From the IMG/VR virus record IMGVR_UViG_3300045988_150584: DNA of 64,000 bases. One strand, given 5' to 3'. The stretch is from a virus. The notes beneath the pieces were generated by a model. The model had not been told where the DNA came from, searched no databases, and was given only the letters and a program-made list of their open reading frames with translations. Shown piece after piece: positions 6,971-49,833 of the stretch. A program made the position numbers and the translations under genes. Position 1 is the stretch's first letter, and each line of letters starts with the position of its first letter.

Positions 6971-7249
6971 ATGAACGAGAGAGGGGTGATGCGATTGGTT
7001 GGGTGTCAGTATTGCAAGAAAGCTCGTGCTTTCTGGGCTTACGATAGCCACGGAAGTCCTCACGGAAGCTATCAGAACGCACATATTGAGGTTGGAACGA
7101 ATATCTTCCACGATACCGCTGGGCGGCAAATGCGCATTCGTTACTGTCCTATGTGCGGAAGATCTCTGCTGGATACCTCAGATGCGGGGGGGGTAACACA
7201 AGTGTTGTTTCCATTTTTGCAGCCCCGAAATCGTCTCGCCGTATCCTAA
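6971..7249 (+). CDS. zinc-ribbon protein; C-terminus depends on the length of a G8 tract
   Basis: CQYC...CPMC pairs. G8 at 7186-7193: G7 would stop at once (GGG GGG TAA), G9 gives a different tail. Confidence 0.5.
   Translation: MNERGVMRLVGCQYCKKARAFWAYDSHGSPHGSYQNAHIEVGTNIFHDTAGRQMRIRYCPMCGRSLLDTSDAGGVTQVLFPFLQPRNRLAVS
7186..7193 (+). repeat. G8 homopolymer
   Basis: Counted in sequence. Confidence 0.95.
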
Positions 7250-7271
7250 CTTAAATTAAGGAGTGTATGAA

Positions 7272-7511
7272 ATGGCTAACAAGCGAAACGACAGCGGTTA
7301 CTTCTGGGTTGATAAGGCTTTGACCTGTAACGGCTGTAAGTTCCTCAACTTTTACAAGTGCGGTTGCCGACGCAACCAAGAGCCTGGAAAGGTTCGTCCG
7401 CTTTCGTCCTATACCAATGGCGATGATTATGTCGCGGTTCTCAAGCCGACGGACTGCGATTATCAGAAAGAGCAGAAGCCGCAGGTCAAGGATGATAAGG
7501 AGAACGAGTAA
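7272..7511 (+). CDS. hypothetical Cys-rich protein
   Basis: ORF track 7263..7511; ATG 7272 follows AAGGAG. Confidence 0.55.
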   Translation: MANKRNDSGYFWVDKALTCNGCKFLNFYKCGCRRNQEPGKVRPLSSYTNGDDYVAVLKPTDCDYQKEQKPQVKDDKENE

Positions 7512-7681
7512 TGCCCATATTTGTTCTTCTCGTGTTTGTGGGCGCAGCTCTTTTGTGGCTGCTACTATCCTTTGGGTTTATCCCTATCGGTAAGTTATCC
7601 AACAGACTTCTGAAAGATGCTTCCGATGCAATGTCAAAGGATGAAAAAGATGAAAAAATTGAAGATAAGGAAGAAAAATAA
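7511..7681 (+). CDS. small membrane protein (56 aa) upstream of the SPFH gene
   Basis: Hand translation MPIFVLLVFVGAALLWLLLSFGFIPIG...; ATG overlaps the preceding stop. Below the ORF-track size cutoff. Confidence 0.5.
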   Translation: MPIFVLLVFVGAALLWLLLSFGFIPIGKLSNRLLKDASDAMSKDEKDEKIEDKEEK

Positions 7682-7684
7682 CCT

Positions 7685-8584
7685 ATGAGAAAGAATGGTT
7701 TTGTTGGTGCTATCGTTTTGGCGATCATCATTTTTGGCGGCGTGATTCTCGGTTTTAGCTGCACATCGCGTGTCCCTACCGGTTATGTTGGAGTCGTTTA
7801 TAATATGAACGGCGGCGTTGATGGTGAGGTTCTGAGTCAGGGCTGGCATCTTGTAGCGCCTACAAAGAAAGTAACCACCTATTCTATCGGTTTGGAGCAG
7901 TCCTACCTTACAAGCGAAGAAAAGGGCGATTCTCCGAACGATGAGAGCTTTTCCATTCCGACGTCCGATGGCAAGACTGTCCGTGTAAATCTTGAGTTCT
8001 CTTACAGATTTGACGAAGAGCGTGTTGCTGAAACATTTACGACTTTCAAGGGCAAGTCTGGCGAACAGATCAAGGATACATTTATCAAGCCTAAGATTAT
8101 CGCTTGGACACAGGAAGTCTCCGCCAATTACCCAGTCACGGATATCTTCGGTGACAAGCGCACGGAGATCAACGCCGAGTTGGACACCTATTTGCGCGAC
8201 AAGTTTGATAAGTATGGCATTATTATCGACACGGTAAACTTCACCGATATCAGCGTAGACGATGAAACCGCCGCCGCGATTCAGAAGAAGGTCACTGCGC
8301 AGCAGGAACTTGAACTGGCTAATATCGAAGCTCAGACTGCCAAGGTTCAGGCCGAAAAGGATCGTCAGGTTGCTGAGATCAACGCTGAGAAGCAGATCAT
8401 TGATGCAAATGCAAAGGCTGAGGTAACGCGCATCGAAGCGGAGGCAGAAGCTCAGGCGAACCGTGAGATTGCAGCATCCCTTACCCCGAATCTGATTGAG
8501 AAGATCAAGTACGAGCGCTGGGACGGTGAGCTTCCTACCGTATCTGGTTCTGGAGCAATCGTCAGCATTGACGGCGTTGACTGA
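7685..8584 (+). CDS. SPFH/band-7 (prohibitin/HflC-like) membrane protein
   Basis: N-terminal TM, SPFH-type core and Ala/Glu-rich coiled coil. Confidence 0.85.
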   Translation: MRKNGFVGAIVLAIIIFGGVILGFSCTSRVPTGYVGVVYNMNGGVDGEVLSQGWHLVAPTKKVTTYSIGLEQSYLTSEEKGDSPNDESFSIPTSDGKTVRVNLEFSYRFDEERVAETFTTFKGKSGEQIKDTFIKPKIIAWTQEVSANYPVTDIFGDKRTEINAELDTYLRDKFDKYGIIIDTVNFTDISVDDETAAAIQKKVTAQQELELANIEAQTAKVQAEKDRQVAEINAEKQIIDANAKAEVTRIEAEAEAQANREIAASLTPNLIEKIKYERWDGELPTVSGSGAIVSIDGVD

Positions 8585-8597
8585 TCGGAGGCCGTGA

Positions 8598-8882
8598 ATG
8601 AAGAATAAGGTTCGTGATATCCTTGCGGATAAGAAAGTGAAGCTACAAGAATTGACTGCACAGGCAGAAGCGGCGGTTGATCTTGTAACGAGAACAATTT
8701 CTGGTTTGGAGCTTGTCAACCAAGAAATTGATGATACGGTTGCAGAAATTGACAAGTATTCTGCTGAGCTTGCGTGTACGCGACAGGCGCTCAGCAAGAA
8801 TCGTACACACAATACTGCACTCATTGCAAATTTTGCAAAACTTCTGGAAGTTCCGGAAACAGAAAGTCAGCCAGTAGCCTAA
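8598..8882 (+). CDS. coiled-coil hypothetical protein
   Basis: ORF track 94 aa; GGAGG upstream. Confidence 0.6.
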   Translation: MKNKVRDILADKKVKLQELTAQAEAAVDLVTRTISGLELVNQEIDDTVAEIDKYSAELACTRQALSKNRTHNTALIANFAKLLEVPETESQPVA

Positions 8883-10626: not shown

Positions 10627-10694
10627 GCCCCTCCTTTAAGACACAGACAGCATCGAATGTGAAATGGTGTCTTGAAGGCTATTTCAAACAAAAA

Positions 10695-10711
10695 GAAATT
10701 AGTTAAACAAT
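10695..10711 (+). promoter_or_regulatory. Leader motif instance GAAATTAGTTAAACAAT
   Basis: Directly upstream of the AAGGAGG RBS of the vWA gene. Confidence 0.4.
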
Positions 10712-10728
10712 TCAAGGAGGAAGAAAGT

Positions 10729-12273
10729 ATGAATGGTTTTATGTCTGCTATGAAAAGCACTTTGAACGATGAGTTCAATGTTTCTGTTACCGAAAACGGT
10801 GCTGTTGGCTATCGTACTACCGGCAAGGAACTATTGGATCTCAACTTTGCCGTTGCATCTCTTCGTAAGGCATCTCCGAGCGATATTGCAAACCGCTTCG
10901 TCAGAGCGTTTTTCGAGGATAAGATTACGGCAATGAAATGGCTGTTCTTTGCGCGTGATGTTCGTGGTGGTCTTGGCGAGCGTCGTTTGTTCCGCATCGT
11001 GTTTCAGCGTATGGCGGAGGAAAATCCGGAATACATCATTCCGCTGATTTCCCTTGTGCCTGAGTATGGACGCTATGACGATTTGTGGTGTTTGCTCGAT
11101 ACAAAGCTTGCACCTAATGTGCTGAACATCATTGCGCAGCAGCTCCGCGATGACATTCAGAATTTGAGCGATGGCAATAGTATTTCTCTTCTCGCAAAGT
11201 GGCTTCCGTCTGCGAATGCTCATTCCGCTGACGCAAAGCGTTATGCTAAGCAGATCTACAAGTTTATGGGCATTTCTGAGCGCGACTACCGTAAGGTGCT
11301 GTCCAAGCTGCGTTCTAAGCTGGATATCGTGGAGAAGAAAATGTCCGAAAAGCGTTGGGATGAGATTGCGTATGAAGCTGTCCCGTCTCGTGCAAATCTG
11401 ATTTACAACTCCGCATTCCTTCGTAACGACGAAGATCGCCGCCGCGATTTCCTGTCCCGTTTGGAAAAGGGCGAAACGAAAATCAATGCGTCTACGCTTT
11501 TCCCGCATGACATTGTTGCAAAGTATAGCGATGGCTGGCGTGGCCTGAAGCCTACGGATAAAACACTGGAAGCTCTTTGGAACGCACTTCCCGATACCGT
11601 AAACGGATGCGGCAATACCATCGTCGTTGCGGATGGCAGCGGCAGTATGACCGTGAATGTCGGTGGCAGCAATGTTACCGCACTGGCTGTTGCAAATGCA
11701 CTTGCGATTTATTTCGCAGAGCGTTCCTCTGGTCAGTTCAAGGACAATTACATTACATTTTCTGAGCATCCTCAGCTCGTCGATTTGAGTAAGGGCAAGA
11801 ATCTCCGCGAGAAGATTCAGATTGCGCTTAAACACAGCGAGGTAGCAAACACAAATATCGAAGCGGTGTTTGACCTTATCTTGACTACGGCAAAGAAAAA
11901 CAACATGGGACAGAGCGATCTTCCTGCAAATATCCTTATTATCTCCGATATGGAGTTTGACTACTGCGCAACATCGAATGGTGGAAGCAGATATAATCGT
12001 GGTCGCGTTGATTCTCGTCTGTTTGACAAGATTGCAAAGCGCTATGAGGATGCTGGGTATAAACTGCCAAGGCTCGTGTTCTGGAACGTGAATAGCCGCA
12101 CGAATACCATCCCTATTAAGGAAAACGAGATGGGAGTTGCGCTTGTAAGCGGTTTTAGTCCGAACATCGCAAAGATGGTGATGAGTGGTCAAACTGATCC
12201 GTATGAGTGTCTGCTTGAAACGCTGAACTCTGATCGCTATAAGCCTATCGGTGACGCTCTGGAAAATCAGTAA
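10729..12273 (+). CDS. DUF2828-like alpha-repeat plus vWA (MIDAS) protein; architecture reminiscent of Ro60/TROVE-vWA
   Basis: ORF track 10672..12273; ATG 10729 after AAGGAGG. FFARDVRGGLGERRLF and YGRYDDLW segments; C-terminal vWA with DGSGS MIDAS motif. Confidence 0.8.
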   Translation: MNGFMSAMKSTLNDEFNVSVTENGAVGYRTTGKELLDLNFAVASLRKASPSDIANRFVRAFFEDKITAMKWLFFARDVRGGLGERRLFRIVFQRMAEENPEYIIPLISLVPEYGRYDDLWCLLDTKLAPNVLNIIAQQLRDDIQNLSDGNSISLLAKWLPSANAHSADAKRYAKQIYKFMGISERDYRKVLSKLRSKLDIVEKKMSEKRWDEIAYEAVPSRANLIYNSAFLRNDEDRRRDFLSRLEKGETKINASTLFPHDIVAKYSDGWRGLKPTDKTLEALWNALPDTVNGCGNTIVVADGSGSMTVNVGGSNVTALAVANALAIYFAERSSGQFKDNYITFSEHPQLVDLSKGKNLREKIQIALKHSEVANTNIEAVFDLILTTAKKNNMGQSDLPANILIISDMEFDYCATSNGGSRYNRGRVDSRLFDKIAKRYEDAGYKLPRLVFWNVNSRTNTIPIKENEMGVALVSGFSPNIAKMVMSGQTDPYECLLETLNSDRYKPIGDALENQ

Positions 12274-12288
12274 AACTCCAACCCAAAA

Positions 12289-12322
12289 GTAAGCAAACCA
12301 CGAAATAAGTGGGTAGTTAAAG
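12289..12322 (+). promoter_or_regulatory. Bipartite motif copy C: GTAAGCAAA-N12-TGGGTAGTTAAAG
   Basis: Same spacing as the other three copies. Confidence 0.35.
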
Positions 12323-12323
12323 T

Positions 12324-12347
12324 AGGGCGGCGGACACCCGCCGCCCT
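12324..12347 (+). terminator. GC-rich hairpin AGGGCGGCGG-ACAC-CCGCCGCCCT
   Basis: 10-bp stem after the vWA gene; weak T tail. Confidence 0.5.
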
Positions 12348-12371
12348 ATCATTATATCCGGAGGTTCGTTT

Positions 12372-12656
12372 ATGGACTTGGTTACAAAATATATTATGAC
12401 GCATTCTGATGGTCGCCGTCATCCTATTTGCGGCTCTGCTATTGCTGCTGCATTTTGTGTGTCGAGCGTTGAAGTGAGACGGCTTGTAAACGCCGCCCGT
12501 ACAAATGGTGATCCGATTTGTTCCAGTGGGCGTGGATACTACATTGCAAAGGACAAAGATGAAATCCAGAAAACAATCGAGTCTCTACAAGGTCGCATCG
12601 CTGGCATGAGTAATGCTGTGTCCGGACTGCAGCAGTATATGGAAGGAGCATTCTGA
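12372..12656 (+). CDS. winged-helix DNA-binding-like protein
   Basis: ORF track 94 aa; GGAGG upstream. Confidence 0.55.
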   Translation: MDLVTKYIMTHSDGRRHPICGSAIAAAFCVSSVEVRRLVNAARTNGDPICSSGRGYYIAKDKDEIQKTIESLQGRIAGMSNAVSGLQQYMEGAF

Positions 12657-12967
12657 TGCCAGATGTTGTTATGACGAATCATAGTGTGAAGCGAACAAAA
12701 GAAAGAATTGGACTAAGCAAGAAAATCGCAGATAAGAACGCGCAGAGAGCGCTTGAATACGGTGTTACGCACTCTGAGGCAAAAGGTGGCTTATGTCGGT
12801 ATCTTGATAAACTGTATCTGTCGAATGGTAATGCAAATAATGTTCGCGTTTATCACAGATATGTATATCTCTTTCGTGGGAACACGCTTTTGACAATCAT
12901 TCCATTACCAAACAAATTCTATGCTCTGGCGGACAAACTTCAAAAGCAGAAAGGCGAAATAGAATGA
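12656..12967 (+). CDS. hypothetical protein
   Basis: ORF track 103 aa; start overlaps the preceding stop. Confidence 0.6.
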   Translation: MPDVVMTNHSVKRTKERIGLSKKIADKNAQRALEYGVTHSEAKGGLCRYLDKLYLSNGNANNVRVYHRYVYLFRGNTLLTIIPLPNKFYALADKLQKQKGEIE

Positions 12968-13920: not shown

Positions 13921-13928
13921 GGTGCAGG

Positions 13929-14336
13929 ATGTACAAGCACTACGAAAACATTACAAGAGAAGTTTTGGATACAATAAAGGTTGGAGATTTGGTCAGAGTA
14001 AACGATTGGACGAGTCCAATGCTTGTGAAAGCGGTATCTAAGAATTTCTTTGTGATGACTTGTAAGAAAGGCGAAGATACATATTACTCTGTGTGTTCAA
14101 AACTGCCGTGGGACGGTATTCGTCACAATGCTATGGTTGGCGGCATGTTCCATTGTGGATGTGATGATTGGATTTTCGGGACGCCGCTTGGAATTAGAGA
14201 CGAAAACATCTACCAGTTTAATGATCCGGAGTTAAATAGGTTGTATCTACAAGAGTTTGAGGATGGTAAAACGCACATTTCTGAACGAAATGGAGCTGCT
14301 ATCTATGATTTGTATGTAGAGCGCTGTGATGACTAA
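13929..14336 (+). CDS. hypothetical protein
   Basis: ORF track 13917..14336; ATG 13929. Confidence 0.6.
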   Translation: MYKHYENITREVLDTIKVGDLVRVNDWTSPMLVKAVSKNFFVMTCKKGEDTYYSVCSKLPWDGIRHNAMVGGMFHCGCDDWIFGTPLGIRDENIYQFNDPELNRLYLQEFEDGKTHISERNGAAIYDLYVERCDD

Positions 14337-20490: not shown

Positions 20491-21930
20491 ATGTACGCAG
20501 CATATGTAACTCGTATTAAGAATTTGCGCAAACATTCAAACGCGGATCGACTTCTCTGCGGTGAATGTTTTGGCAATACGGTAATTGTGGGCTTGGATAC
20601 AAAGCCAGAAGAGCTGGGTGTCTATTTCCCCGTAGATGGCAAGCTTGGCACTGAGTATGCGGTGAAGAACGACCTGCTTCGCCGTAAGGATGAGAACGGT
20701 AAGCCTGCTGGTGGTTATCTCGATCCTGAAAAGCGTAATATTAAGGCGTTGAAGCTTCGTGGCGAAAAGAGCGATGGCTTGTTTATGCCATTGTCCAGTT
20801 TGAGTGGGTTCACAGATATTGCAAAGCTCCGTGATGGCGATGTAATTACCATTTTGAATGGTGTTACAATTTGTGAGAAGTATATCCCCCATCGTAAGAA
20901 GAGTACCATTATGGTTGGGGGGGGTAGGACTCGTAAGCATCACGATCCTGTTGCTCCGCTCTTTGCGGAACATGCTGACACGGAACAGCTCGCATATAAC
21001 CTCAGCGCATTTCACCCAGGCGATCTTGTTGAGATTACTTTGAAAATGCACGGCACATCTCAGCGAACCGGATATCTACCAATGCTTAAAGGATATAAGA
21101 AGACATTGCTTGATAAGCTCCTACATCGCATTGGTTCTCCGATTTATAATTGGGGATATGTAACTGGTACTCGTCGTGTTGTCTTGGATGATTTTGACGG
21201 TGGCTTTTATGGTAGCAATGCTTTCCGTGAACAGCATAGCAAGGTTTTTGAAGGTAAGCTGCATAAGGGCGAAACCGTGTACTATGAAGTCGTTGGCTTT
21301 ACGCAAGACAAGCAGCCTATTATGGCATCTTGCGACAATAAAAAAGTCGGTGATAAGGAATTTGTTAAACAATACGGCGAAAAGACAGTGTTTAGCTATG
21401 GTTGCTATCCAGACGGTGTAAAGGAAGTAACAAATCCGAAAATTACACACGCAACAGTAATGATTGGCGATACCTCTTTTACAGCAAATGAGATTACGGA
21501 ATATGAATCTGCTCCGCAGTCTGATTTCTATGTGTATCGAATGACAATGACAAATGAGGATGGCGATGTTGTTGAATACACACCAGACTTTATGCGTTAT
21601 CGTTGTGAACAGATGGGCGTTAAGTGTGTTCCGCTATTTGCTCGATTCATTATTCCGGATTACATTCAGCTTCCTGATGCTGTTGGGTCTCCGATGGCTG
21701 TCAATGCTGGCGAATATGTCAAGGAAATTGCTGAAAACTTCTATGATGGTGCAGACCCGATTGGTAAGTCGCATGTCCGCGAGGGCGTTGTTTGCCGTAT
21801 CGTAAACCGCCCAAAGTTTACAGCATATAAGCACAAGAATTTTGCATTCAAGGTGCTTGAGGGAATTGTAAAGGATGTTGCGTCTGCTCCGGACATGGAA
21901 GAAGCGCAAGATGATGTAAGCGTTGCATAA
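20491..21930 (+). CDS. ATP-dependent RNA ligase (Rnl2/Rnl5-like, N-terminal OB-like domain)
   Basis: Ligase motif I KMHGTS, EGVVCRIV, YKHKNFAFK. In-frame G8 tract at 20917-20924. Confidence 0.75.
   Translation: MYAAYVTRIKNLRKHSNADRLLCGECFGNTVIVGLDTKPEELGVYFPVDGKLGTEYAVKNDLLRRKDENGKPAGGYLDPEKRNIKALKLRGEKSDGLFMPLSSLSGFTDIAKLRDGDVITILNGVTICEKYIPHRKKSTIMVGGGRTRKHHDPVAPLFAEHADTEQLAYNLSAFHPGDLVEITLKMHGTSQRTGYLPMLKGYKKTLLDKLLHRIGSPIYNWGYVTGTRRVVLDDFDGGFYGSNAFREQHSKVFEGKLHKGETVYYEVVGFTQDKQPIMASCDNKKVGDKEFVKQYGEKTVFSYGCYPDGVKEVTNPKITHATVMIGDTSFTANEITEYESAPQSDFYVYRMTMTNEDGDVVEYTPDFMRYRCEQMGVKCVPLFARFIIPDYIQLPDAVGSPMAVNAGEYVKEIAENFYDGADPIGKSHVREGVVCRIVNRPKFTAYKHKNFAFKVLEGIVKDVASAPDMEEAQDDVSVA
20917..20924 (+). 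repeat. G8 homopolymer (in frame, Gly-Gly-Gly)
   Basis: Counted in sequence. Confidence 0.95.
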
Positions 21931-22876: not shown

Positions 22877-23791
22877 ATGTCTATCTTTTTTATGATGGTA
22901 GGTCTTCCGTACAGCGGAAAATCTGTTTATGCGGAGGGGCTGCGAGAGAAGTTCGGTGCAGAGATTCATTCCAGCGATGCAATTCGAGCAGAGATCCTTG
23001 GAGATGTACAGGATCAGACAAACAATCAGATTGTTTTTGATACTCTGCACAAGCGAGTAATTTCTGATTTGTCTGCTGGTAAAAATGTAATTTACGATGC
23101 GACGAATATCAATTACAAGCGGCGTATTGATATGCTGAATCGCTTGTCGAAGGTGAAGTGTCAGAAAGTCTGTATCGTTATGGCGACACCTTTTCACGAA
23201 TGTGAAGAGCGTAGCAAGCATCGTGAGCGGGTTGTCCCACACGAGGTTCTTGTGCGTATGTATAAGAATTTCTGGCTTCCGTATTGGTATGAGGGGTGGG
23301 ACGCAATCGAGCTTGTTTATCCAGATAATTTTGAGCCGTACAGTGTAAGTGATTTATTTAATCGTGATGGAGGGCTGAATAGCTTTGAGCAGGACAATCC
23401 ACATCATACTTTCACGGTTGGGCATCATTGTATCGCTACATATGGGCTTGTTTCTGATGGAAGCACAGAGCTTCAGGAGGCTGCTCTTCTTCATGATATC
23501 GGAAAGCCTTTCACAAAAAGCTTTGTGAATAGCAAGGGCGAAACAACAGAGATTGCTCATTATTATGAACATCAGCATGTTTCCGCCTATGATAGCTTAT
23601 TCTACTCAAATCCGAGTTTGAATCGGCTGTATATCGCAAATATCATCCAGTGGCATATGCGTCCGTTTGAGCTTGAACGAGACCCCCATTCTGGCAAAGC
23701 GCAGAAGCGGTTCAAAAAGCTTGTCGGCAATAAGCTTTATTCAGATGTGATGAAGCTTCATGCCGCTGATATCGAAGCAAAAGGAACTTGA
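22877..23791 (+). CDS. polynucleotide kinase (P-loop) fused to HD phosphohydrolase
   Basis: MMVGLPYSGKS Walker A, DATNINYKRR, then HH...LLHDIGKP. ATG 22877 after AAGGAG (track ORF starts 22775). Confidence 0.8.
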   Translation: MSIFFMMVGLPYSGKSVYAEGLREKFGAEIHSSDAIRAEILGDVQDQTNNQIVFDTLHKRVISDLSAGKNVIYDATNINYKRRIDMLNRLSKVKCQKVCIVMATPFHECEERSKHRERVVPHEVLVRMYKNFWLPYWYEGWDAIELVYPDNFEPYSVSDLFNRDGGLNSFEQDNPHHTFTVGHHCIATYGLVSDGSTELQEAALLHDIGKPFTKSFVNSKGETTEIAHYYEHQHVSAYDSLFYSNPSLNRLYIANIIQWHMRPFELERDPHSGKAQKRFKKLVGNKLYSDVMKLHAADIEAKGT

Positions 23792-24648
23792 TAAACAATA
23801 CAAAGTGGGTGTTTGGCATTTACAGTAAAGAAGACTTAGATGTAATGCAGTCATGGGATTTGCAGCGAAAAATTCAAGTGACTACAACTCGTATCATTGA
23901 GTGGTATGAGCATTTCGGCGGAAGCGTTTATGTTGCTTTTTCTGGTGGTAAAGATAGTACGGTTTTGCTTGATATCGTTCGCCGTATTTACCCAGATGTG
24001 CCGGCTGTATTTTGTGACACTGGCTTGGAATTTCCGGAAATCCGAGAGTTTGTTAAGCAGCATGATAATGTTGTGATTCTGCGACCTGAGATGAATTTCA
24101 GAAAGGTCATCGAAACATACGGATATCCAGTTGTCTCAAAAAGAGTTGCCGACACTGTAGAATATGGCAGTAAGCCAGGTTCTTATCGGTGGAAAGAGCT
24201 TCACGGAGAGATTATCCGTAGCAATGGTACTCCGTCGGAGTTTAACTGCGAAAAGTGGCGCTATCTTCTGGACGCCCCATTTAAGGTTTCTTCTCGTTGC
24301 TGCAATATTATGAAGAAGAAGCCGCTGAAGAAGTATTTCAAAGAAACTGGTCGCGTTCCCATTATTGCAACTATGGCAGACGAGAGCCGATCTCGTCGAT
24401 CTACATGGATGAGACAGGGTTGTAATGCTTTTAGTAAGAAATCTCCAAGTTCTCAGCCGATGTCTTTCTGGACAGAAAATGATGTTCTTGAGTATTTGCA
24501 CACCTACAATATTCCCTACGCCTCCGTTTACGGTGAGATCATACCTTGTGGGGGGGGTGGACAACGACAGGTGAAAGAAGAACTGGTTGTGTCTTTTGCG
24601 CATTTGGCGCTCATCTGGAGAAGTCCCCGAACCGTTTCCAGCGATTAA
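23788..24648 (+). CDS. PAPS-reductase-like PP-loop enzyme, main part; frame lost at G8 tract 24550-24557
   Basis: AFSGGKDS PP-loop. After the tract the conserved-looking continuation (RTGCVFCAFG) is in the -1 frame. Confidence 0.75.
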   Translation: MINNTKWVFGIYSKEDLDVMQSWDLQRKIQVTTTRIIEWYEHFGGSVYVAFSGGKDSTVLLDIVRRIYPDVPAVFCDTGLEFPEIREFVKQHDNVVILRPEMNFRKVIETYGYPVVSKRVADTVEYGSKPGSYRWKELHGEIIRSNGTPSEFNCEKWRYLLDAPFKVSSRCCNIMKKKPLKKYFKETGRVPIIATMADESRSRRSTWMRQGCNAFSKKSPSSQPMSFWTENDVLEYLHTYNIPYASVYGEIIPCGGGGQRQVKEELVVSFAHLALIWRSPRTVSSD

Positions 24649-24752
24649 AGGAAACGCATCCTAAGCTATGGGAATATTGTATGAAGCCTTGGAGTGAACA
24701 TGGCTTAGGTATGCGAACAGTATTAGAGTACATTGGTATTCCGTGTGAATAG
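24546..24752 (+). CDS. C-terminal part of the same PAPS-reductase-like gene, in the -1 frame
   Basis: WTTTGERRTGCVFCAFGAHLEKSPNRFQRLKETHP; one extra G (G9) would fuse it to 23788.. Confidence 0.6.
   Translation: MWGGWTTTGERRTGCVFCAFGAHLEKSPNRFQRLKETHPKLWEYCMKPWSEHGLGMRTVLEYIGIPCE
24550..24557 (+). repeat. G8 homopolymer at a frame switch
   Basis: Counted; upstream frame 1, downstream frame 0. Confidence 0.95.
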
Positions 24753-24883
24753 AAAGTGAGTTTTTGTAATGCAACCAATTTTCAAAGAATACGCTCATTT
24801 CTTACATGATAATGGGTGTGATATATCTTGGTTTCAAGAAAGAACATATTGGTTGGATCACAACATTGTAAAAGCGTTCACGA

Positions 24884-24892
24884 GGGGGGGGG
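24884..24892 (+). repeat. G9 homopolymer at a frame switch
   Basis: Counted. Confidence 0.95.
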
Positions 24893-25163
24893 CAGCGGTT
24901 AGTTTCGCTATATAAGATTGTTGTTTCTGACGATCTTACCGTTGCTCTTACAAAACACAAACAAAATGTTGATGGTCTGCAATTTGAATCTTGGGACGAA
25001 ACTATCGCGCGTTTCAGACCGCATCTTGAAAGTATTGAGCATGATAGCATCGCTCTTCTTCGACAGTATGGAATTGGGACAGAGCGGAAAATAGTCAATA
25101 CAAATTCTACTGGCAAAGACAGTATGGTTGTTACACATCTTGCAAAAAAAGCAGGATTAAATT

Positions 25164-26078
25164 TTGAAACATATTTCAATGTTACAACCTTGGATGTTGC
25201 TGAAAGTAATTGTATGGCAAAACGGAATGGATTCAAACACATTCTGCCCAATCCGGAGTATGGTGGATTTTATAAGTACATCCAACGCTATGATGGGGGG
25301 GGGCAACCAAATGATACCAAGTAGATTGAATCGCTTCTGCTGCAATTATTTTAAGGAAAGTCCGACAATTGGCTATTTTCCTGATGATGAGCCTCTGATT
25401 TTCTTATTTGGAATGCGGAATCAAGAATCAGTTCGCCGGTCTGGTTATAAGGACATATGGAAAAACGAAAAGTGGGGCGAACGCGACTGGATCGCTCTTC
25501 TTCCAATTCGTCAATGGTCTGAGTTTGATGTCTGGCTTTATATTTTGTCGGAAGATATTGAGATCAACGACAAGTATAGATACGGATATGATCGCGTTGG
25601 ATGTGGTATTGCTTGTCCGAATTATACAAAGTATACATGGGTTCTTGATAAATACTGGTATCCATATTTGTTTAATCGGTGGAGAAATATCTTACGGAAC
25701 GACTTTATCAACAATAACAAGTGGCTCATTATGAATTGCACCGTCGATGAGTATGTGACAAAAGCATGGACTGGCGGTGTATATCGTGACGAGCCGACAG
25801 AAGATGTTATTTCTGAATTTTCTCAGTATTCTGGGCTGGATATATCAATTGCAAGAAAGTATTTTAATCGCTATTGCGCAAATGGATGTATTAACAAGCG
25901 CCGTCAGCCTCTTCGGATCAAAGATAGAAATGCTCTTGCCATGAATATGAAAATGTTTGGAAGAAATATAAATCATTTTTTGTGCAAGAAATGCCTTATG
26001 AAAGAATTTGGTTGGAACAAATCTCAATGGGACGAAAAAGTCAGCGAATTCAAAGCGCAAGGCTGTCAATTATTTTGA
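25164..26078 (+). CDS. largest open segment of the second PAPS-reductase-like gene
   Basis: ORF track 304 aa. Confidence 0.6.
   Translation: MKHISMLQPWMLLKVIVWQNGMDSNTFCPIRSMVDFISTSNAMMGGGNQMIPSRLNRFCCNYFKESPTIGYFPDDEPLIFLFGMRNQESVRRSGYKDIWKNEKWGERDWIALLPIRQWSEFDVWLYILSEDIEINDKYRYGYDRVGCGIACPNYTKYTWVLDKYWYPYLFNRWRNILRNDFINNNKWLIMNCTVDEYVTKAWTGGVYRDEPTEDVISEFSQYSGLDISIARKYFNRYCANGCINKRRQPLRIKDRNALAMNMKMFGRNINHFLCKKCLMKEFGWNKSQWDEKVSEFKAQGCQLF
25295..25303 (+). repeat. G9 homopolymer at a frame switch
   Basis: Counted. Confidence 0.95.
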
Positions 26079-26117: not shown

Positions 26118-26639
26118 ATGAAGATGGACAAAGTTGCTGGCAGTGGGAATGACGAATTCTACACGCCAGAGTATGCAATTACACCTATTGCAAAGTATCT
26201 TGCACCCCCCCCCGCCGTAATTTGGTGTCCGTTTGATACGGAAGACAGTTTGTTTGTGAAGCATTTTAGAGCTGCTGGGTATACAGTTTTGGCAACACAT
26301 ATTTGTAATGGTCAGGACTTTTTTACTATGGAGACTCCAAACTGTGACTACATCATTAGTAATCCTCCATATTCACTTAAAGGTGATGTTATTGACCGCC
26401 TGTTTGAAATCGGAAAACCGTTTGCAATGCTTGTTGGCGTTGTTGGATTGTTTGAAAGCCAACATCGGTTTAACCTTTTCAAGTCACATGAATTTGAAAT
26501 TATGTATTTGAATAAGCGCGTTTCATACTTTAAGGACTATGCAGAGCAAAAACCGTCGCTTAATCCTCCGTTTAGTAGCGTCTATATTTGTAGCAAAATG
26601 CTTCCAAGAACCATTGTATTTGAAGAAATCGACAAATAA
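26118..26639 (+). CDS. adenine-specific DNA methyltransferase (NPPY)
   Basis: EFYTPEYAI..., IISNPPYSLK; in-frame C9 tract 26205-26213 (Pro-Pro-Pro). Confidence 0.75.
   Translation: MKMDKVAGSGNDEFYTPEYAITPIAKYLAPPPAVIWCPFDTEDSLFVKHFRAAGYTVLATHICNGQDFFTMETPNCDYIISNPPYSLKGDVIDRLFEIGKPFAMLVGVVGLFESQHRFNLFKSHEFEIMYLNKRVSYFKDYAEQKPSLNPPFSSVYICSKMLPRTIVFEEIDK
26205..26213 (+). repeat. C9 homopolymer (in frame)
   Basis: Counted. Confidence 0.95.
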
Positions 26640-26651: not shown

Positions 26652-27533
26652 ATGAGATATACTACTTCCCTTTTCTGCGAGTTCGATAAGTACGCAGCAG
26701 AAAGCTATTGTGCGGTTCATGACACAGCTCCGGAGCTAAATATTGGTGATATTACAAAGGCAGATGAGAAGTCTGTACCTGATTTCAACACCATGTTTGG
26801 CGGATCTCCGTGTCAGGACTTCTCTATCGCAGGGAAACAGGGGGGGGCTGCATGGACATGTAAAAACTGCGGTCATACATATAACCCCCTTGAAGCCCAT
26901 TACACAGAGCGAGATAAATGCCCGAATTGCGGTTCGACTAAGATTGAGAAAACACGCTCGTCTCTTTTGGTTGAATGGCTGCGCTTCCTTCGGGAGAAAA
27001 AGCCTCGTTTTGCTATCTATGAAAATGTCAAGAACATTGTAGGCGCTCGTTTTAGACCGACATTCGATCTGTTTGTTAAAGAGCTTGAGGACTACGGTTA
27101 CAATGTTCACTGGCAAGTATTAAATGCGAAAAATTATGGTATTCCTCAGAATCGAGAGCGTGTCTATTGTGTTATCATTCGTAAAGATTTGGATAACGGA
27201 AAGTTCAAATTCCCAGAGCCTATTCCGCTTAAACATACGCTTGCCGATATGTTAGAAACCGATGTCGATGAAAAATACTATCTCAGTGACGAGAAAGTAG
27301 CTGCAATGATTACCCCCCCCCGCAGCGAATCAGTAAAACAATCCGAGTTGGAGGAAGAAATTCAGCCGACAGACAACATCAATGGGACTTGGTTGCAGAA
27401 AACACATGGAGTCCGATTGAGTAACAAAGGCAACAAGTTTGATGGATATAGTGATATTGCTCTAACTCTTCTTGCGAGAGACTATAAGGGTTTTGGCAAT
27501 CAGCAAATGACAGGAGTAATGGAAATTGACTGA
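26652..27533 (+). CDS. C5-cytosine DNA methyltransferase, catalytic part starting at motif II (no motif I)
   Basis: Own AGGAG RBS. LFCEFDKYAAESY (II), GGSPCQDFS (IV), ENVKNIV (VI), QNRERVY (VIII). In-frame G8 26840-26847 and C9 27313-27321. Confidence 0.8.
   Translation: MRYTTSLFCEFDKYAAESYCAVHDTAPELNIGDITKADEKSVPDFNTMFGGSPCQDFSIAGKQGGAAWTCKNCGHTYNPLEAHYTERDKCPNCGSTKIEKTRSSLLVEWLRFLREKKPRFAIYENVKNIVGARFRPTFDLFVKELEDYGYNVHWQVLNAKNYGIPQNRERVYCVIIRKDLDNGKFKFPEPIPLKHTLADMLETDVDEKYYLSDEKVAAMITPPRSESVKQSELEEEIQPTDNINGTWLQKTHGVRLSNKGNKFDGYSDIALTLLARDYKGFGNQQMTGVMEID
26840..26847 (+). repeat. G8 homopolymer (in frame)
   Basis: Counted. Confidence 0.95.
27313..27321 (+). repeat. C9 homopolymer (in frame)
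   Basis: Counted. Confidence 0.95.
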
Positions 27534-27715
27534 TAAAATTATTCAAGTTGGGAACTGGACGCAAGGTGCAAAACGCGAGAATCCGCAAAGAGGTCGAGTA
27601 TACGATCCGTCAGGAATTGCACCATCCCTCACCTGTATGGGGGGGTAATCTTCAGCCGTTTATAATCGTCCGTAATGAACATGTTGAGTTAGAAAGTAGT
27701 GCTGATGAAGAGTAG
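27526..27715 (+). pseudogene. TRD-like cassette of C5-methylase, two frames joined at a G7 tract
   Basis: LTDKIIQVGNWTQGAKRENPQRGRVYDPSGIAPSLTCMGG stops at TAA right after G7 27639-27645; GGNLQPFIIVRNEH... continues in the +1 frame. Confidence 0.45.
27639..27645 (+). repeat. G7 homopolymer at a frame switch
   Basis: Counted. Confidence 0.95.
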
Positions 27716-28776: not shown

Positions 28777-28920
28777 GTGATTGGAAGAATAATTCCAGAT
28801 AGCAAGAAGCTTCACCAAAATCAGGAAGTGTATGATACGGATTCGTGTAGCGGCGGAGGGCTTTCGCCTACGATTAAAGCCACGCACTACAAAGATCCAC
28901 CCAAAATTGAGGTGCAGTAG
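28777..28920 (+). pseudogene. TRD-like cassette fragment
   Basis: VIGRIIPDSKK...GGGLSPTIKATHYKD in a separate frame. Confidence 0.4.
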
Positions 28921-29123
28921 TGGAAACAGTCAGAATTAAGCAAGCCACAAAACAGGGTTTTATTGAGTGCGTCGTGGGGGGGGCTGTCGATCTCTCCTAT
29001 CCAAACTCAAAAACAAGGCGTGGTCGAGTACAAGAGGGCGGAACGATCTGCCCGACAATTACAGCACAGAATACCGGCATCTGCCTTATTGAAAAAGCAG
29101 ATTATTCCCGCAAATCCACTTGA
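28920..29123 (+). pseudogene. TRD-like cassette fragment
   Basis: ORF track 67 aa ...RGRVQEGGTICPTITAQNTG; in-frame G8 28976-28983. Confidence 0.4.
28976..28983 (+). repeat. G8 homopolymer
   Basis: Counted. Confidence 0.95.
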
Positions 29124-47809: not shown

Positions 47810-48124
47810 ATGGCGATGAAAATTGGATATATTCAAGAGATTGATCTTCAACTTAACCCGCAGTGTAAAGAACGATTCCGTTTCAGAGAAGCATCGTTTA
47901 CTCGAAGAATTTCAAGTCGTGGAGACCGTGTGTATTCCAAAATGCTTGCACTTCCAGTTGACTACGAAGAAATCGTAGACAATGCAAACATTATGAAGAA
48001 AAATAGCAAAATCATTTTAGTACGAGAACCATTCTTACTCGATGACGAACTGCGCAAGAAAGTTACAGAATGGGTTGAGTGGGCAAACACAGCAGACCCA
48101 CACGAATACGATCCGTTTGCATAA
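47810..48124 (+). CDS. hypothetical protein
   Basis: ORF track 47759..48124; ATG 47810. Confidence 0.55.
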   Translation: MAMKIGYIQEIDLQLNPQCKERFRFREASFTRRISSRGDRVYSKMLALPVDYEEIVDNANIMKKNSKIILVREPFLLDDELRKKVTEWVEWANTADPHEYDPFA

Positions 48125-48138
48125 GAGAGGTTTTCACA

Positions 48139-48315
48139 GTGGATAACGAAAAATACACGCAAACGAATAGCACAAACGAGCCTGTTCATTGCAAGGACTG
48201 CCAGCATCTTATGTTTTCCGATTGTTACGGAGAATGTACAAAGTGTCATTTAGGAATTGTGCGGCCAGATGATTCTTGCGAATTTGGCGAAAGGAGAGCT
48301 ACAACACATGTCTGA
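48139..48315 (+). CDS. hypothetical Cys-rich protein
   Basis: ORF track 48079..48315; GTG 48139 after GAGAGG. Confidence 0.45.
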   Translation: MDNEKYTQTNSTNEPVHCKDCQHLMFSDCYGECTKCHLGIVRPDDSCEFGERRATTHV

Positions 48316-48868
48316 AAACCGAAAGCTGTATATCGCAGACTGGCATTATGCACATGCAAACATTCTTGCATTTGATAATCGTCCGTTTAAGACAGTAGAA
48401 AAAATGAACGAAGAGCTTGTTAAGCGTTGGAACGCTGCGGTCGATCCTGGCGATACGGTTTATGTGCTTGGTGATATGTTCTGGTGTATTTCCTCTCAGG
48501 CCGTACCAATTCTGCAAGCATTGAACGGTCAGAAATTTCTTATCAAAGGAAATCACGACAGATCAAACGATGGCAAGTTTGTAAAAGAGTTTGCAAAAAT
48601 TACAGAATACCTTGAAGTAAATGATAATTTTAGAAACATCGTGCTTTGCCATTATCCTATTCCATGTTTCAAAAATCATTATTACGGTTGGTATCACCTA
48701 TATGGGCATGTACATAATTCGTTTGAGTATCAGATGATGGAGCATGACAAATATCTGATGCAGGAATTATACGGAAAGCAGTGTCAAATGTTTAATGTAG
48801 GTGCAATGATGCCGTATATGGATTATACGCCACGAACCCTTGATGAAATCCTAAAAGGAGCAAGTTAA
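48308..48868 (+). CDS. calcineurin-like metallophosphoesterase
   Basis: YIADWH, GDMFW, KGNHD, CHYP. Confidence 0.75.
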   Translation: MSENRKLYIADWHYAHANILAFDNRPFKTVEKMNEELVKRWNAAVDPGDTVYVLGDMFWCISSQAVPILQALNGQKFLIKGNHDRSNDGKFVKEFAKITEYLEVNDNFRNIVLCHYPIPCFKNHYYGWYHLYGHVHNSFEYQMMEHDKYLMQELYGKQCQMFNVGAMMPYMDYTPRTLDEILKGAS

Positions 48869-48873
48869 ACAAT
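48857..48873 (+). promoter_or_regulatory. Leader motif instance GGAGCAAGTTAAACAAT
   Basis: Contains stop TAA 48866-48868; ATG 48874 follows directly. Confidence 0.4.
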
Positions 48874-49374
48874 ATGGAAAAATTCTATGTGATAAAACCT
48901 GAGTGTGGATTTTACAAGCAGGTATTCGACTATTTAGAAAACGCGCAGATCGTAAACAAATTGTTTAATCAGTTCTCTCATGATATGGGAATCGAATCCA
49001 ATCTCTATTATGCCAGTAATGACACGGTGTCAATCGTACCGACAGCAAAAGACAAAGAGAAATTTGCAAATCAATTCAAAAAATATGCTGACGGCGCGAC
49101 AGGTCTAATGTTCTTCAAACAGAATAGCAAGGTTTATAAGGAATGGATCGCTTTATTGAAAAAGAATAATTTGAAAGTAAAGTGCCGTCCGCAGCCAGGA
49201 TTCTATTTTGGAATTTGGGGCAGAGGAAGTTCCCGTTTATTTGAACACGATGGGAAACTGTATATGTCATTAAATTACAATGAAGATTTTGAAGATCCAC
49301 AGGATTGTGAGCCTATTCTTGGCAGTGAGTTTTACAAGGTATTAGAGGAACTCGAACATAGCGAAAAGAAATAA
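48874..49374 (+). CDS. hypothetical protein
   Basis: ORF track 166 aa. Confidence 0.6.
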   Translation: MEKFYVIKPECGFYKQVFDYLENAQIVNKLFNQFSHDMGIESNLYYASNDTVSIVPTAKDKEKFANQFKKYADGATGLMFFKQNSKVYKEWIALLKKNNLKVKCRPQPGFYFGIWGRGSSRLFEHDGKLYMSLNYNEDFEDPQDCEPILGSEFYKVLEELEHSEKK

Positions 49375-49385
49375 TGAGGTGAAAT

Positions 49386-49833
49386 ATGAACACAGGAGTA
49401 ATGTTCTCATCGAAGTCTATGAATTGGGCAACACCGCAAGACTTCTTTGATAAACTCAACTCCGAGTTTCACTTTACCCTTGATCCGTGCGCAGACAGTG
49501 AAAACCATAAATGCGCTACATATTACACAGAGCGCGAAAATGGTCTTGCACAGTGCTGGGGGGGGGCAAACGGTCTTCTGTAATCCGCCATACGGAAGAG
49601 CGATTAAGGATTGGGTAAAGAAATGCTCGGAAGAATCGTTAAAGCCAAATACAACGGTTGTAATGCTGATTCCAGCACGAACCGATACGAGTTATTTCCA
49701 CGATTATATCTATCAAAAACCAAATGTCGAAATTCGGTTTATTCGTGGACGATTAAAGTTCGGAGATGGAAAAAACTCCGCCCCGTTCCCAAGTATGGTG
49801 GTTATATTCAAATCTAAAAAGGATGAAACATAA
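49386..49833 (+). pseudogene. Phage Dam-type N6-adenine methyltransferase split by a G9 tract (phase-variable or frameshifted)
   Basis: NWATPQDFFDKLNSEFHFTLDPCA...LAQCWGG (frame 0), then TVFCNPPYGRAIKDWVKK (frame 1). Switch at G9 49558-49566; G8 would be in frame. Confidence 0.7.
49558..49566 (+). repeat. G9 homopolymer at a frame switch
   Basis: Counted. Confidence 0.95.

Follow-up and report, generated by a model that had tools for sequence, protein, structure and literature searches.

Length-variable G/C runs as probable phase-variation switches in the DNA-modification genes of a human-gut Clostridia phage

Why should a phage genome hold long runs of G or C inside its genes, several of them exactly where the reading frame breaks? 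The question is raised by the virus record IMGVR_UViG_3300045988_150584, a human-gut Clostridia phage, of which the 64,000-nt stretch analysed here (the window) contains 12 G/C runs of 7–9 nt where approximately 2 are expected. A sequence-only reading had proposed that they form a phage-borne set of switches, turned ON and OFF stochastically, with DNA-modification genes as the main targets. The coordinate and length that it assigned to each of the 12 tracts match the window sequence; its count of eight tracts in 24.5–29.0 kb should be nine, and the A8 run that it placed at 37973–37980 lies at 37972–37979. The tracts, by first nucleotide, are as follows.

G8, plus strand: 7186, 20917, 24550, 26840, 28727 and 28976
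G9, plus strand: 24884, 25295 and 49558
G7, plus strand: 27639
C9, plus strand: 26205 and 27313

A zero-order composition model of the window predicts approximately 1.8 G-runs and 0.5 C-runs of at least 7 nt, and approximately 0.5 runs of at least 8 nt. Shorter runs are scarce (33 G4, 4 G5 and 1 G6 observed vs 111, 26 and 6 expected, a 3–6-fold depletion), leaving a bimodal spectrum. Genes for DNA modification, which make up 14% of the window, hold 10 of the 12 tracts (P = 1.3e-7) and methyltransferases alone hold seven (P = 6e-5); none of the 12 falls in the structural/lysis arm. These ten sit in the genes for a pair of PAPS-reductase-like PP-loop enzymes, in two N6-adenine methyltransferase genes and in an array that encodes a split C5-cytosine methyltransferase; a DNA-modifying role for both PP-loop enzymes is suggested by their family and gene neighbourhood. 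We propose that the G/C runs are probably hypermutable contingency loci, through which slipped-strand phase variation would turn phage DNA-modification genes ON and OFF in combination.

Four of the genes concerned are the PP-loop and N6-adenine methyltransferase genes.

23788..24752, plus strand: gene A, PAPS-reductase-like PP-loop enzyme (phrog_424), tract G8 at 24550–24557
24760..26078, plus strand: gene B, second PAPS-reductase-like PP-loop enzyme, tracts G9 at 24884–24892 and G9 at 25295–25303
26118..26639, plus strand: M1, N6-adenine DNA methyltransferase of 173 aa with an NPPY motif (phrog_799), tract C9 at 26205–26213
49386..49833, plus strand: Dam-like phage N6-adenine methyltransferase (TIGR01712, phrog_111), tract G9 at 49558–49566

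Five frame switches had been proposed, at 24550, 24884, 25295, 49558 and 27639, and the first four hold. One additional G at 24550 (G9) restores a 321-aa PP-loop protein with a C-terminal GCVFCAFG motif, the G8 of the window being OFF. Removal of one G at each of 24884 and 25295 fuses three fragments into a 438-aa gene B protein; its ON state needs G8 at both tracts, and the window, with G9 at both, is OFF. At 49558, one G fewer (G8) restores a 148-aa Dam protein with the NPPY motif just 3′ of the tract, and G9 is OFF. The fifth did not stand, as no length at 27639 fuses the ORF to the next long ORF, and a further switch absent from the earlier reading lies at 28727, where loss of one G lengthens the ORF to 28920. 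In the state captured by the window, gene A, gene B (at both tracts) and Dam are OFF, M1 and M2 are ON, and M3 is without its C-terminal extension (M2 and M3 belong to the C5 array described below).

Comparison of tract lengths among related phages, a check set beforehand, covered approximately 200 related loci and a close clade of 8 genomes. Length varies at 9 of the 10 tracts within this clade, and no two genomes share a length vector. Genomes L002 and L015, separated by 28 substitutions over 21,171 nt (0.13%) and a single further indel, have different lengths at 5 of 10 tracts; for A5, A6, T5 and T6 runs, 0 of 436 comparisons differed in length. Per site, tract length shifts hundreds of times faster than point substitution. 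Tract positions are kept down to 64–68% protein identity, prophages of cultured isolates included, and the tracts stand uninterrupted at the same place across lineages with saturated synonymous sites. Lengths span 7–10, mostly 8–9; G7, G8, G9 and G10 are all seen at one site, the frame breaks are confined to tracts and are both +1 and −1, in-frame alleles are found at every site, and homologs without a tract are never frame-broken. No one length restores every frame, contrary to what a fixed-length consensus error would give, and the tracts are neither absent from the relatives nor interrupted in them. Further tract-containing families found in the relatives likewise comprise methyltransferases (C5, N6_N4 and DPPY-type) and PP-loop enzymes, in keeping with an effect mainly on DNA-modification genes; because the fetched loci were centred on the tract genes themselves, this family-wide enrichment is partly sampling-biased. 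The tracts are real and over-represented, they keep their positions while their lengths vary, and they have consequences for the frame; conserved position, length polymorphism and concentration in one gene class all lend support to stochastic switching.

Individual genes display both states. For gene A, L002, L003 and L015 have G9 (ON), whereas the window, L001, L016, L017 and L018 have G8 (OFF). Gene B is a single intact ORF in L010 and L028; in approximately 20 of 30 relatives its frame is lost precisely at one or both of its tracts, by both +1 and −1. For M1 the tract is C9 and in frame (ON) in the window; it is C8 and frame-split in 7 of 7 close relatives. The Dam tract is present in approximately 49 of 63 viral loci, approximately 12 of them in frame and 37 split exactly at the tract (G7–G10), and all 13 Dam homologs without it are in frame. 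Out-of-frame Dam G9 occurs in approximately 60–80% of genomes; an independent scan of human-gut metagenome contigs counted 11 with G9 and 3 with G8, and for a fifteenth contig the match length implies G9.

Several sequencing platforms are known to handle homopolymers poorly, and most of the relatives are metagenome assemblies, either of which might suggest that the runs were mis-called and that the true genomes are all in frame. A control is provided by a tract in a gene outside the modification class.

20491..21930, plus strand: RNA ligase, 479 aa (phrog_968), in-frame G8 at 20917–20924

This tract is G8 in 7 of 7 close relatives. Across 80 homologous loci the gene is in frame in every one, and the tract, found in 29 of them, is always G8; these loci span three lineages that differ in flanking sequence. 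Of 30 genomes, 30 have the identical in-frame RNA-ligase G8 in the contigs and datasets that also hold the variable tracts (Fisher P = 6e-6 vs Dam), and it is on this invariance that we exclude a consensus error; the G7 tract of a Pnkp-like gene is likewise invariant, in 8 of 8. Polymorphism is common to IMG/VR contigs, to human-gut contigs from ENA named in SPAdes style and to a cultured isolate: in a prophage of Flintibacter muris DSM 110149 (L030; 165x coverage according to the contig title) gene B has G9 and is broken, and in a prophage of Clostridiaceae strain 9 (L028) it has G8 and is intact. Errors cannot give rise to tracts, hold them at conserved positions or limit variation to one gene class, and a sequencing or assembly artefact is in our judgement extremely improbable. 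Because the RNA-ligase tract never varies, it also follows that not every tract is a switch.

Selection keeps both the tract and the reading frame downstream of it. In the repaired frame, dN/dS is 0.04–0.13 for tract genes vs 0.01–0.08 for their neighbours (0.039 for gene A, also in the repaired frame, 0.041 for M1, 0.078 for M2 and 0.127 for M3). Gene B is in frame in none of the 8 close genomes, yet its 432 codons contain no internal stop and dN/dS is 0.072. For Dam, considering out-of-frame alleles only, the segment downstream of the tract gives pN 0.11 vs pS 0.82. The G run is dispensable to the protein itself: no Gly codon is rarer than GGG (9% of Gly codons), 0 of 41 Gly-Gly pairs outside the tracts are encoded GGGGGG, and homologs without the tract read W-(G/Q/K/R/D)-(G/K/A)-E at the tract site. 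These data bear on the proposal that the tracts are neutral hotspots, fragile sequence of no adaptive value in decaying, dispensable modification genes. Many alleles are indeed frame-broken, gene A of L003 carries one genuine nonsense mutation, and fragmentary modules lie 3′ of the C5 methyltransferase. However, repaired-frame dN/dS equals that of essential neighbours, the L003 mutation is the single lesion found outside the tracts, tract position and integrity are kept across lineages saturated at synonymous sites, a disfavoured codon is used where the protein tolerates other residues, and the tracts are concentrated in one functional class. Because genes that are mostly out of frame keep neighbour-like dN/dS of 0.04–0.13, we argue against decay and regard it as very unlikely.

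Strong purifying selection on frames downstream of a break could also reflect recoding, in which RNA polymerase or the ribosome slips on the G runs, out-of-frame alleles are routinely expressed and DNA length is of minor importance. Out of frame is the commonest state at several sites (Dam; gene B in 8 of 8 close genomes), and runs of the rare GGG could favour ribosomal slipping. A programmed shift, however, would have a fixed direction and a conserved length, whereas +1 and −1 offsets and four lengths occur here at one site among close relatives, every site has in-frame alleles, and it is the DNA length itself that evolves so rapidly. RNA polymerase slips efficiently on long A/T runs but far less so on G/C runs. 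We consider recoding distinctly unlikely as the alternative to genetic switching; the two are compatible, and slippage of this kind may make OFF states leaky.

The remaining tracts lie in a small ORF at 7 kb and in the C5-cytosine methyltransferase array.

6971..7249, plus strand: small Zn-ribbon-like ORF of 92 aa, sole family match phrog_1494 (unknown function), G8 at 7186–7193 near the 3′ end
26652..27533, plus strand: M2, alpha part of the C5-cytosine methyltransferase (PF00145 4e-49, phrog_116), motifs I–VIII and one recognition module, tracts G8 at 26840–26847 and C9 at 27313–27321
27520..27648, plus strand: 42-codon ORF, recognition-module-like peptide, ending with G7 at 27639–27645 and then TAA
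27699..28920, plus strand: M3, beta part of the C5 methyltransferase, recognition-like modules and motifs IX–X followed by a second motif-I remnant, tract G8 at 28727–28734
28920..29123, plus strand: short ORF, methyltransferase recognition-module-like fragment (phrog_16427, phrog_8411), tract G8 at 28976–28983, in frame

At 7186, 27639 and 28976 the hosts are small or fragmentary ORFs, and the sense of ON and OFF is ambiguous there. The tract at 7186 had been said to decide the C-terminus, and it sets the C-terminal tail alone, at 18, 1 or 20 further residues; comparison with 11 relatives whose 44-nt flanks are identical or 1 base different gives G6, G7, G8 (eight times) and G9 (twice). In M2 both tracts, the first just after the catalytic PCQ motif, are in frame in the window, and the gene is split at its tracts in L002, L015 and L017. 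The phrog_116 profile is continuous from M2 (positions 231–410) to M3 (409–492), and in L007 the beta part is provided with a separate ribosome-binding site and ATG. M3 is in frame at 406–409 aa in L001, L003 and L016; G8 in the window removes a 62-aa C-terminal extension that G7 or G10 would add. In 6 of 7 relatives the 42-codon ORF encodes an unchanged peptide (100% conserved); the tract is G7, G8 (five times) or G9 among relatives. At 28976, L016 and L003 have a G7 or G9 tract and a split frame, and the more distant L004 and L007 have a tract, split, at the equivalent site.

For 27.5–29.1 kb only, the tracts might select recognition modules or C-terminal extensions and so alter which sequences are methylated, rather than act as ON/OFF switches. 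The tracts at 27639, 28727 and 28976 each stand directly 3′ of a recognition-module-like ('TL...GGG') motif, the one at 28727 lies past catalytic motifs IX–X and adds or removes only the module-like extension, and with a G9 tract the 42-codon ORF runs on into methyltransferase-like sequence. Against this, the 42-codon ORF joins M3 at no tract length, two stop codons lying between them, and the downstream pieces are without a catalytic core and may be remnants. Specificity switching in this interval seems to us unlikely.

Under slipped-strand phase variation, the explanation we favour, mispairing during replication would add or drop one G, and this heritable change, presumably reversible within a clone, would put the gene in frame or out of frame. 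The genome has at least nine switches of this kind. These, in the two PP-loop enzymes, the two N6-adenine methyltransferases and the pieces of the split C5-cytosine methyltransferase, would flip independently, making the phage or prophage population a mix of many modification 'phasotypes'. Methylation would shield the phage from classical restriction-modification and expose it to modification-dependent (Type IV) restriction, and it may also cost the lysogen; a mixed population should always contain some variant fit for the next host strain. Bet-hedging against restriction is thus the likely benefit, and mixed DNA-modification patterns within a phage population would, if this is correct, be a clade-wide trait. 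The term 'phasevarion', a regulon under methyltransferase control, is not supported by this analysis.

The closest precedents are the polyG tracts of Campylobacter phages and the phase-variable methyltransferases of bacteria. Among the latter, Type III mod genes and their phasevarions are known from Haemophilus, Neisseria, Helicobacter and Moraxella, and a Campylobacter Type IIG enzyme also belongs to this group (PMC4889913). As here, a simple-sequence repeat within the ORF shifts the frame and switches methylation stochastically and reversibly. The bacterial systems, however, are chromosomal restriction-modification genes, usually one or a few per genome, that regulate host gene sets, whereas the phage genome, in which no restriction partner was seen, clusters many solitary methyltransferases of three chemical types together with PP-loop enzymes, and their expected role is protection of phage DNA. 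The contingency loci of Campylobacter jejuni and Helicobacter pylori (G8–G11) share the length range and mode seen here, the depletion of intermediate runs, and many independent loci whose combinations form phasotypes; they are cellular, lie mostly in surface-structure genes and belong to organisms without MutS/MutL mismatch repair, whereas the present tracts belong to a virus of Bacillota. For the array itself, M.AquI is a C5-cytosine methyltransferase split into alpha and beta subunits, and the C5 enzymes of Bacillus phages SPR, phi3T and rho11s have tandem recognition domains. M2 and M3 resemble both, with motifs I–VIII and IX–X on separate adjacent ORFs and recognition-like modules in tandem; we know of no G/C tracts in M.AquI or in the SPR, phi3T and rho11s enzymes.

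Hypermutable polyG tracts have been described in Fletchervirus, a group of Campylobacter phages (Sorensen et al., 2021, Cell Rep 35:109214, as cited in PMC12823448 and PMC11868660). They too are reportedly phage-carried, within coding sequences and variable in length, and give rise to phenotypically different subpopulations of one phage. Unlike in Fletchervirus, the tracts here lie in DNA-modification genes, with none in the structural/lysis arm, and belong to temperate phages of gut Clostridia with approximately 38–45% GC and up to approximately 12 tracts per genome. The Campylobacter phage tracts reportedly sit in receptor-binding or structural genes and alter host recognition, and those phages are said to have approximately 26% GC and a host that itself uses polyG phase variation. 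A textbook diversity-generating retroelement (DGR) is present in the same window, and receptor diversification here falls to this separate system. Both the DGR and the tracts represent phage-encoded, targeted hypermutation that generates population diversity; the DGR does so with an error-prone reverse transcriptase that rewrites residues of a binding protein, whereas the tracts would do so by slippage and frame shift in a different class of genes.

Exactly twelve G/C homopolymers of 7–9 nt occur in the window, the twelve that the sequence-only reading had listed and with the coordinates it gave, and all of them lie inside plus-strand open frames. About two runs of this length would be expected. 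The reported clustering between 24.5 and 29.0 kb holds as well, although nine tracts rather than eight fall there; the A8 run noted alongside them lies at 37972–37979. For the window's composition (42.5% G+C; A 29.6, T 27.9, G 23.3, C 19.2%), the G-run spectrum is bimodal. Runs of G4, G5 and G6 number 33, 4 and 1 where 111, 26 and 6 are expected, whereas G8 and G9 occur 6 and 3 times against expectations of 0.33 and 0.08, and C9 twice against 0.01. A and T runs match expectation, the longest being 8 and 6. Across the whole window, G4–G6 runs are 3–6-fold below the composition-based prediction and C3–C6 runs are also depleted, less strongly, a pattern that fits avoidance of GGG codons and of intermediate slippery runs outside the switches. 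G/C tracts become hypermutable at about 7 nt or more.

Ten of the twelve tracts sit in DNA-modification genes, which make up 14% of the window (binomial P = 1.3e-7); methyltransferases alone carry seven (P = 6e-5).

Tract-bearing genes in the window, by tract start (plus strand)
7186: small Zn-ribbon ORF
20917: RNA ligase
24550: gene A; G9 needed for a 321-aa PAPS-reductase-like PP-loop protein, with its C-terminal Cys motif regained
24884 and 25295: gene B; G8 needed at both for a 438-aa PP-loop protein
26205: M1, a second NPPY methyltransferase; C9 tract, in frame in the window
26840 and 27313: M2, the alpha part (motifs I–VIII) of a C5-cytosine methyltransferase; in frame in the window
27639 and 28976: short ORFs encoding recognition-module-like peptides
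28727: M3, after motifs IX–X of the beta part; the tract governs attachment of a 62-aa extension
49558: Dam-like gene; G8 needed for a 148-aa phage N6-adenine methyltransferase, with NPPY directly 3' of the tract

As had been predicted, adding one G at 24550 and removing one at each of 24884, 25295 and 49558 restores full-length enzymes. The frame change proposed at 27639 is borne out to the extent that the tract ends a short ORF, but no long ORF is restored there, and a further switch at 28727 had been missed. In the window, A, B, Dam and the M3 extension are thus OFF, whereas M1 and M2 are ON. Gene B is a single intact ORF in two homologous loci from relatives, L010 and L028. Based on their family and neighbourhood, the PP-loop enzymes A and B are likely to act in DNA modification; NCBIfam returned no specific name for either, giving sub-threshold matches to PAPS reductase, CysD and 'hypothetical' models.

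The tracts belong to a genome organized in two arms.

Main regions of the window
1–54 kb, plus strand: N6-methyltransferase/SNF2 fusion, radical-SAM pair, RNA-repair module, DNA-modification cluster, primase-helicase, PolIII-alpha-type polymerase, anaerobic ribonucleotide reductase and large serine recombinase
20491–23791, within the plus-strand arm: the RNA-repair module, comprising RNA ligase, a nucleotidyltransferase-like protein, and kinase (AAA_33) with HD phosphohydrolase
54–64 kb, minus strand: endolysin, tail fibre and a complete diversity-generating retroelement (DGR)

The gene content of both arms indicates a temperate phage or prophage. The RNA-repair module probably counters host anticodon nucleases. 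The fusion gene (648–3731), in which an N6-adenine methyltransferase domain is joined to a SNF2/ResIII helicase domain in 1027 aa, is the sole DNA-modification-type gene in the window that lacks any G/C tract. Elsewhere in this arm (10672–16574), a 533-aa DUF2828/DUF7788 vWA-type protein is followed by two radical-SAM/SPASM-type enzymes at 12964–13920 and 15495–16574, a group that may form a further module for modifying nucleic acids or peptides. The relatives comprise IMG/VR viral contigs of 65–140 kb and human-gut metagenome contigs, together with prophages in Flintibacter muris DSM 110149 (a cultured lysogen), a Clostridiaceae isolate and mouse-gut MAGs. Among GenBank phages, megablast of window 20–32 kb gave no match and tblastn with gene B gave only matches below 31% identity, none of them a close relative.

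Comparison of tract lengths among related phages, which the sequence-only reading had suggested as a check, reveals kept positions and polymorphic lengths. Scanning viral contigs with repaired gene B yielded 26 loci of 55–97% identity; every locus of 38–45% G+C contains G runs of 7–11 nt, and three AT-rich distant loci contain none. Each tract of the window recurs at the homologous position in the seven closest genomes, and length differs at 9 of 10 sites. No two of the eight genomes in a 21-kb alignment share a length vector. Two of them, L002 and L015, have different lengths at 5 of 10 tracts although only 28 substitutions in 21,171 nt (0.13%) and a single ordinary indel separate them otherwise; per site, therefore, tract length changes at a rate hundreds of times that of point substitution. 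At 7186, genomes whose flanks are identical or nearly so have G6, G7, G8 or G9. In about 20 of 30 relatives the frame of gene B breaks precisely at the first tract, the second or both, by +1 as well as −1 shifts, and the tract positions of this gene are kept in relatives of 64–68% identity, including two cultured-isolate prophages. No frame splits were seen away from tracts; alleles in frame and out of frame both occur.

The Dam-like gene, represented at 63 viral loci, behaves in the same way. All 13 homologs without the tract are in one frame; among approximately 49 with it, whose lengths include G7, G8, G9 and G10, the frame is intact in about 12 and splits exactly at the tract in 37. In 15 human-gut metagenome contigs with exact-flank matches, the Dam tract is G9 in 11 and G8 in 3, and the length of the match implies G9 in the last (L196).

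Could such differences be sequencing artefacts? The RNA-ligase gene argues otherwise. At 80 viral loci it is in frame in 80, and the tract, present in 29 of these loci from three lineages with different flanks, is G8 in every one. With the window included, the RNA-ligase tract is thus unchanged in 30/30, against 32/55 at modal length for Dam (Fisher P = 6e-6). Both counts come from the same contigs and datasets, so the variation cannot be put down to generic mis-calling of homopolymers, and we reject that explanation. A Pnkp-like gene of relatives likewise has an in-frame G7 tract that is unchanged in 8/8. Evidently, selection purges frame shifts from RNA-repair genes, while in modification genes it tolerates or favours them. 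Runs of A5, A6, T5 and T6 differ in length in 0 of 436 comparisons. Long A/T runs do vary occasionally, as in an A7-to-A8 change within gene B (window 25144–25150) in one close relative and T8/T9 and A8/A9 variation at two other sites (L094:1957 and L100:9885 in loci from relatives); among close relatives, such variation is far rarer than at G/C tracts.

A second alternative is neutral decay of the split genes. We computed dN/dS in repaired frames among the eight close genomes.

dN/dS in repaired frames and number of genomes in frame
Gene A: 0.039; 3/8 in frame
Gene B: 0.072; 0/8 in frame, with 432 codons free of internal stops
M1: 0.041; 1/8 in frame
M2: 0.078; 5/8 in frame
M3: 0.127; C-terminal extension present in 3/8
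Ten neighbouring genes, among them the RNA ligase with its invariant tract: 0.013–0.080; not frame-shifted

Repaired-frame values of 0.04–0.13 lead us to reject decay. The few apparent stops trace to a position before the true start, to a natural stop codon and to one real nonsense mutation. The last, a CGA-to-TGA change in gene A of the close relative L003 (homologous to window 24397), is the sole non-tract lesion in the tract-bearing genes of the eight genomes.

Codon usage bears on the level at which the tracts are kept. GGG is the rarest glycine codon in use (72/800), and GGGGGG encodes none of the 41 Gly-Gly pairs outside tracts. Tract-less Dam homologs have W-(G/Q/K/R/D)-(G/K/A)-E at the tract site, and residues this variable mean that Gly-Gly, let alone GGG-GGG, is not required by the protein. 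The tract is maintained at the DNA level.

For Dam, selection can also be followed in out-of-frame alleles alone. In lineages with saturated synonymous sites (pS 0.82), the segment downstream of the tract retains NPPY and a pN of 0.11. This segment must therefore be translated regularly, by way of frequent reversion or of recoding. Slippage in transcription or translation, the recoding route, may be a source of leakiness, but tract length and shift direction both vary, and so it is not the primary mechanism. In its strict form, a programmed ribosomal frameshift or transcriptional slippage site of fixed length and one direction, we reject it, as G7–G10 occur at one site with offsets both ways.

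The C5-cytosine methyltransferase region is more intricate. M2 and M3 match consecutive stretches of one PHROG profile, and in locus L007 of a relative a separate ribosome-binding site and ATG precede the beta part; the enzyme is therefore best read as split. A single gene running from M2 through a 42-codon ORF to M3, joined by tract changes, was considered and rejected: the frame change from M2 to the small ORF occurs without a tract. Fusion of the 42-codon ORF to M3 was likewise rejected, as two stop codons intervene at every tract length. A split alpha/beta enzyme, as in L007, fits better than a single joined gene.

The 42-codon ORF itself (window 27520–27648) encodes a peptide resembling a C5-methyltransferase recognition module. 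It begins after AGGAG and TTG, ends with the G7 tract and then TAA, and is 100% conserved in 6 of 7 close relatives, above its neighbours. In a G9 state the ORF would run on to 27715 as methyltransferase-like sequence and overlap the beginning of the next gene. It may serve translational coupling or be a remnant. Farther downstream (window 28500–29123), a second motif I (FFSGIGAFE) follows motifs IX–X of the beta part and leads straight into recognition-module-like pieces that lack a catalytic motif IV. This stretch resembles what is left of a second methyltransferase, yet three lineages (the window's clade, L004 and L007) keep both its G tracts and vary in their length. The tracts in the C5 array might also re-assort recognition modules. 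Their placement directly 3' of 'TL...GGG' modules speaks for this idea, but the frames are not joined at any tract length.

Tract-bearing genes are more diverse in the relatives than in the window. We clustered all 268 G/C runs of at least 7 nt from the window and the first 104 loci, a survey biased toward the genes of interest around which loci were fetched, and scanned ten cluster representatives with Pfam, which stood for the larger clusters and several singletons that the window lacks. Further tract-bearing families include another C5 methyltransferase (15 loci), a probable DPPY-type methyltransferase (13 loci), three N6_N4 methyltransferase clusters, more PP-loop enzymes, one tail lysozyme and the Pnkp-like gene. 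By length, the 268 runs are distributed as 70 of 7 nt, 109 of 8, 77 of 9, 11 of 10 and one of 11, and G is on the sense strand in 223 of 268.

Bacteria classically hedge their bets through phase variation driven by repeat slippage. We propose that slipped-strand phase variation at contingency loci is applied here by a phage to its own DNA-modification genes, and that each genome would thereby come to carry its own ON/OFF combination. Judged from sequence, the tracts would qualify as contingency loci: they lie in open reading frames, have hypermutable lengths, are over-represented and polymorphic with conserved flanks, and change the frame of genes that appear functional. Genome comparison gives both in-frame and out-of-frame alleles at the tracts of M1, M2 and Dam, which would accordingly be phase-variable methyltransferases in the sense used for phasevarions. 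A phasevarion further calls for a set of other genes whose expression follows the methyltransferase switch, and we do not class the system as one. The benefit would be a bet hedged between restriction that is evaded by modification and restriction that is provoked by it, and we infer a further advantage in sparing the lysogen a cost.

The fullest form of this proposal, to which we give an even chance of being correct, is that a widespread clade of uncultured human and animal gut Clostridia phages (~65–140 kb) evolved a combinatorial modification-state generator. At least nine independently slipping G/C tracts, in methyltransferases of three chemistries and in PP-loop enzymes, would provide hundreds of heritable states per lineage (2^9 = 512 here), selected as a bet-hedge between classical and modification-dependent restriction, alongside a receptor-binding-protein DGR. 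If this combinatorial reading is true, the system would be the first parallel, on the phage side, to phase-variable restriction-modification in bacteria, and its tracts in essential RNA-repair genes would be held fixed. It would also point to a general answer for a phage that faces both hosts restricting unmodified DNA and hosts restricting modified DNA, which may be met with a standing mixture of modification states. For annotation, 'frameshifted pseudogenes' in the methyltransferase clusters of these phages would be switches rather than errors or dead genes, and automatic pipelines would miss or split them.

The DGR of the same window is complete.

Components of the DGR (all minus strand)
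59225–63480: entire DGR
59225–60406: reverse transcriptase (phrog_1423)
60639–60764: template repeat (TR), 126 nt
60858–61313: Avd-like ORF
61393–63480: target gene, DUF6273 family
61402–61527: variable repeat (VR), 126 nt, at the 3' end of the target gene

All 21 of the TR-to-VR mismatches fall at TR adenines, as expected of a DGR. Its presence beside the G/C tracts means that the phage has two separate targeted-diversity systems.

Our literature search turned up no account of G-tract switches in the DNA-modification genes of phages, or in Bacillota phages, a result that is no proof of novelty. The sole phage case of repeat-slippage phase variation it returned concerns receptor-binding genes of Campylobacter phages. 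That polyG study of 2021 reportedly places the tracts in receptor-binding or structural genes, where they alter host recognition. This is the closest precedent, sharing phage-encoded polyG tracts within ORFs that vary in length. The likeness does not extend to the genes concerned: the tracts reportedly act on receptor-binding genes in the Campylobacter phages, and lie in DNA-modification genes here, where the structural and lysis arm (54–64 kb) contains no G/C run of 7 nt or more. The DGR here appears to do the receptor-diversifying job that polyG tracts do in Campylobacter phages. With bacterial phase-variable methyltransferases the present system shares its mechanism, whereas theirs are chromosomal parts of restriction-modification systems with a regulatory role.
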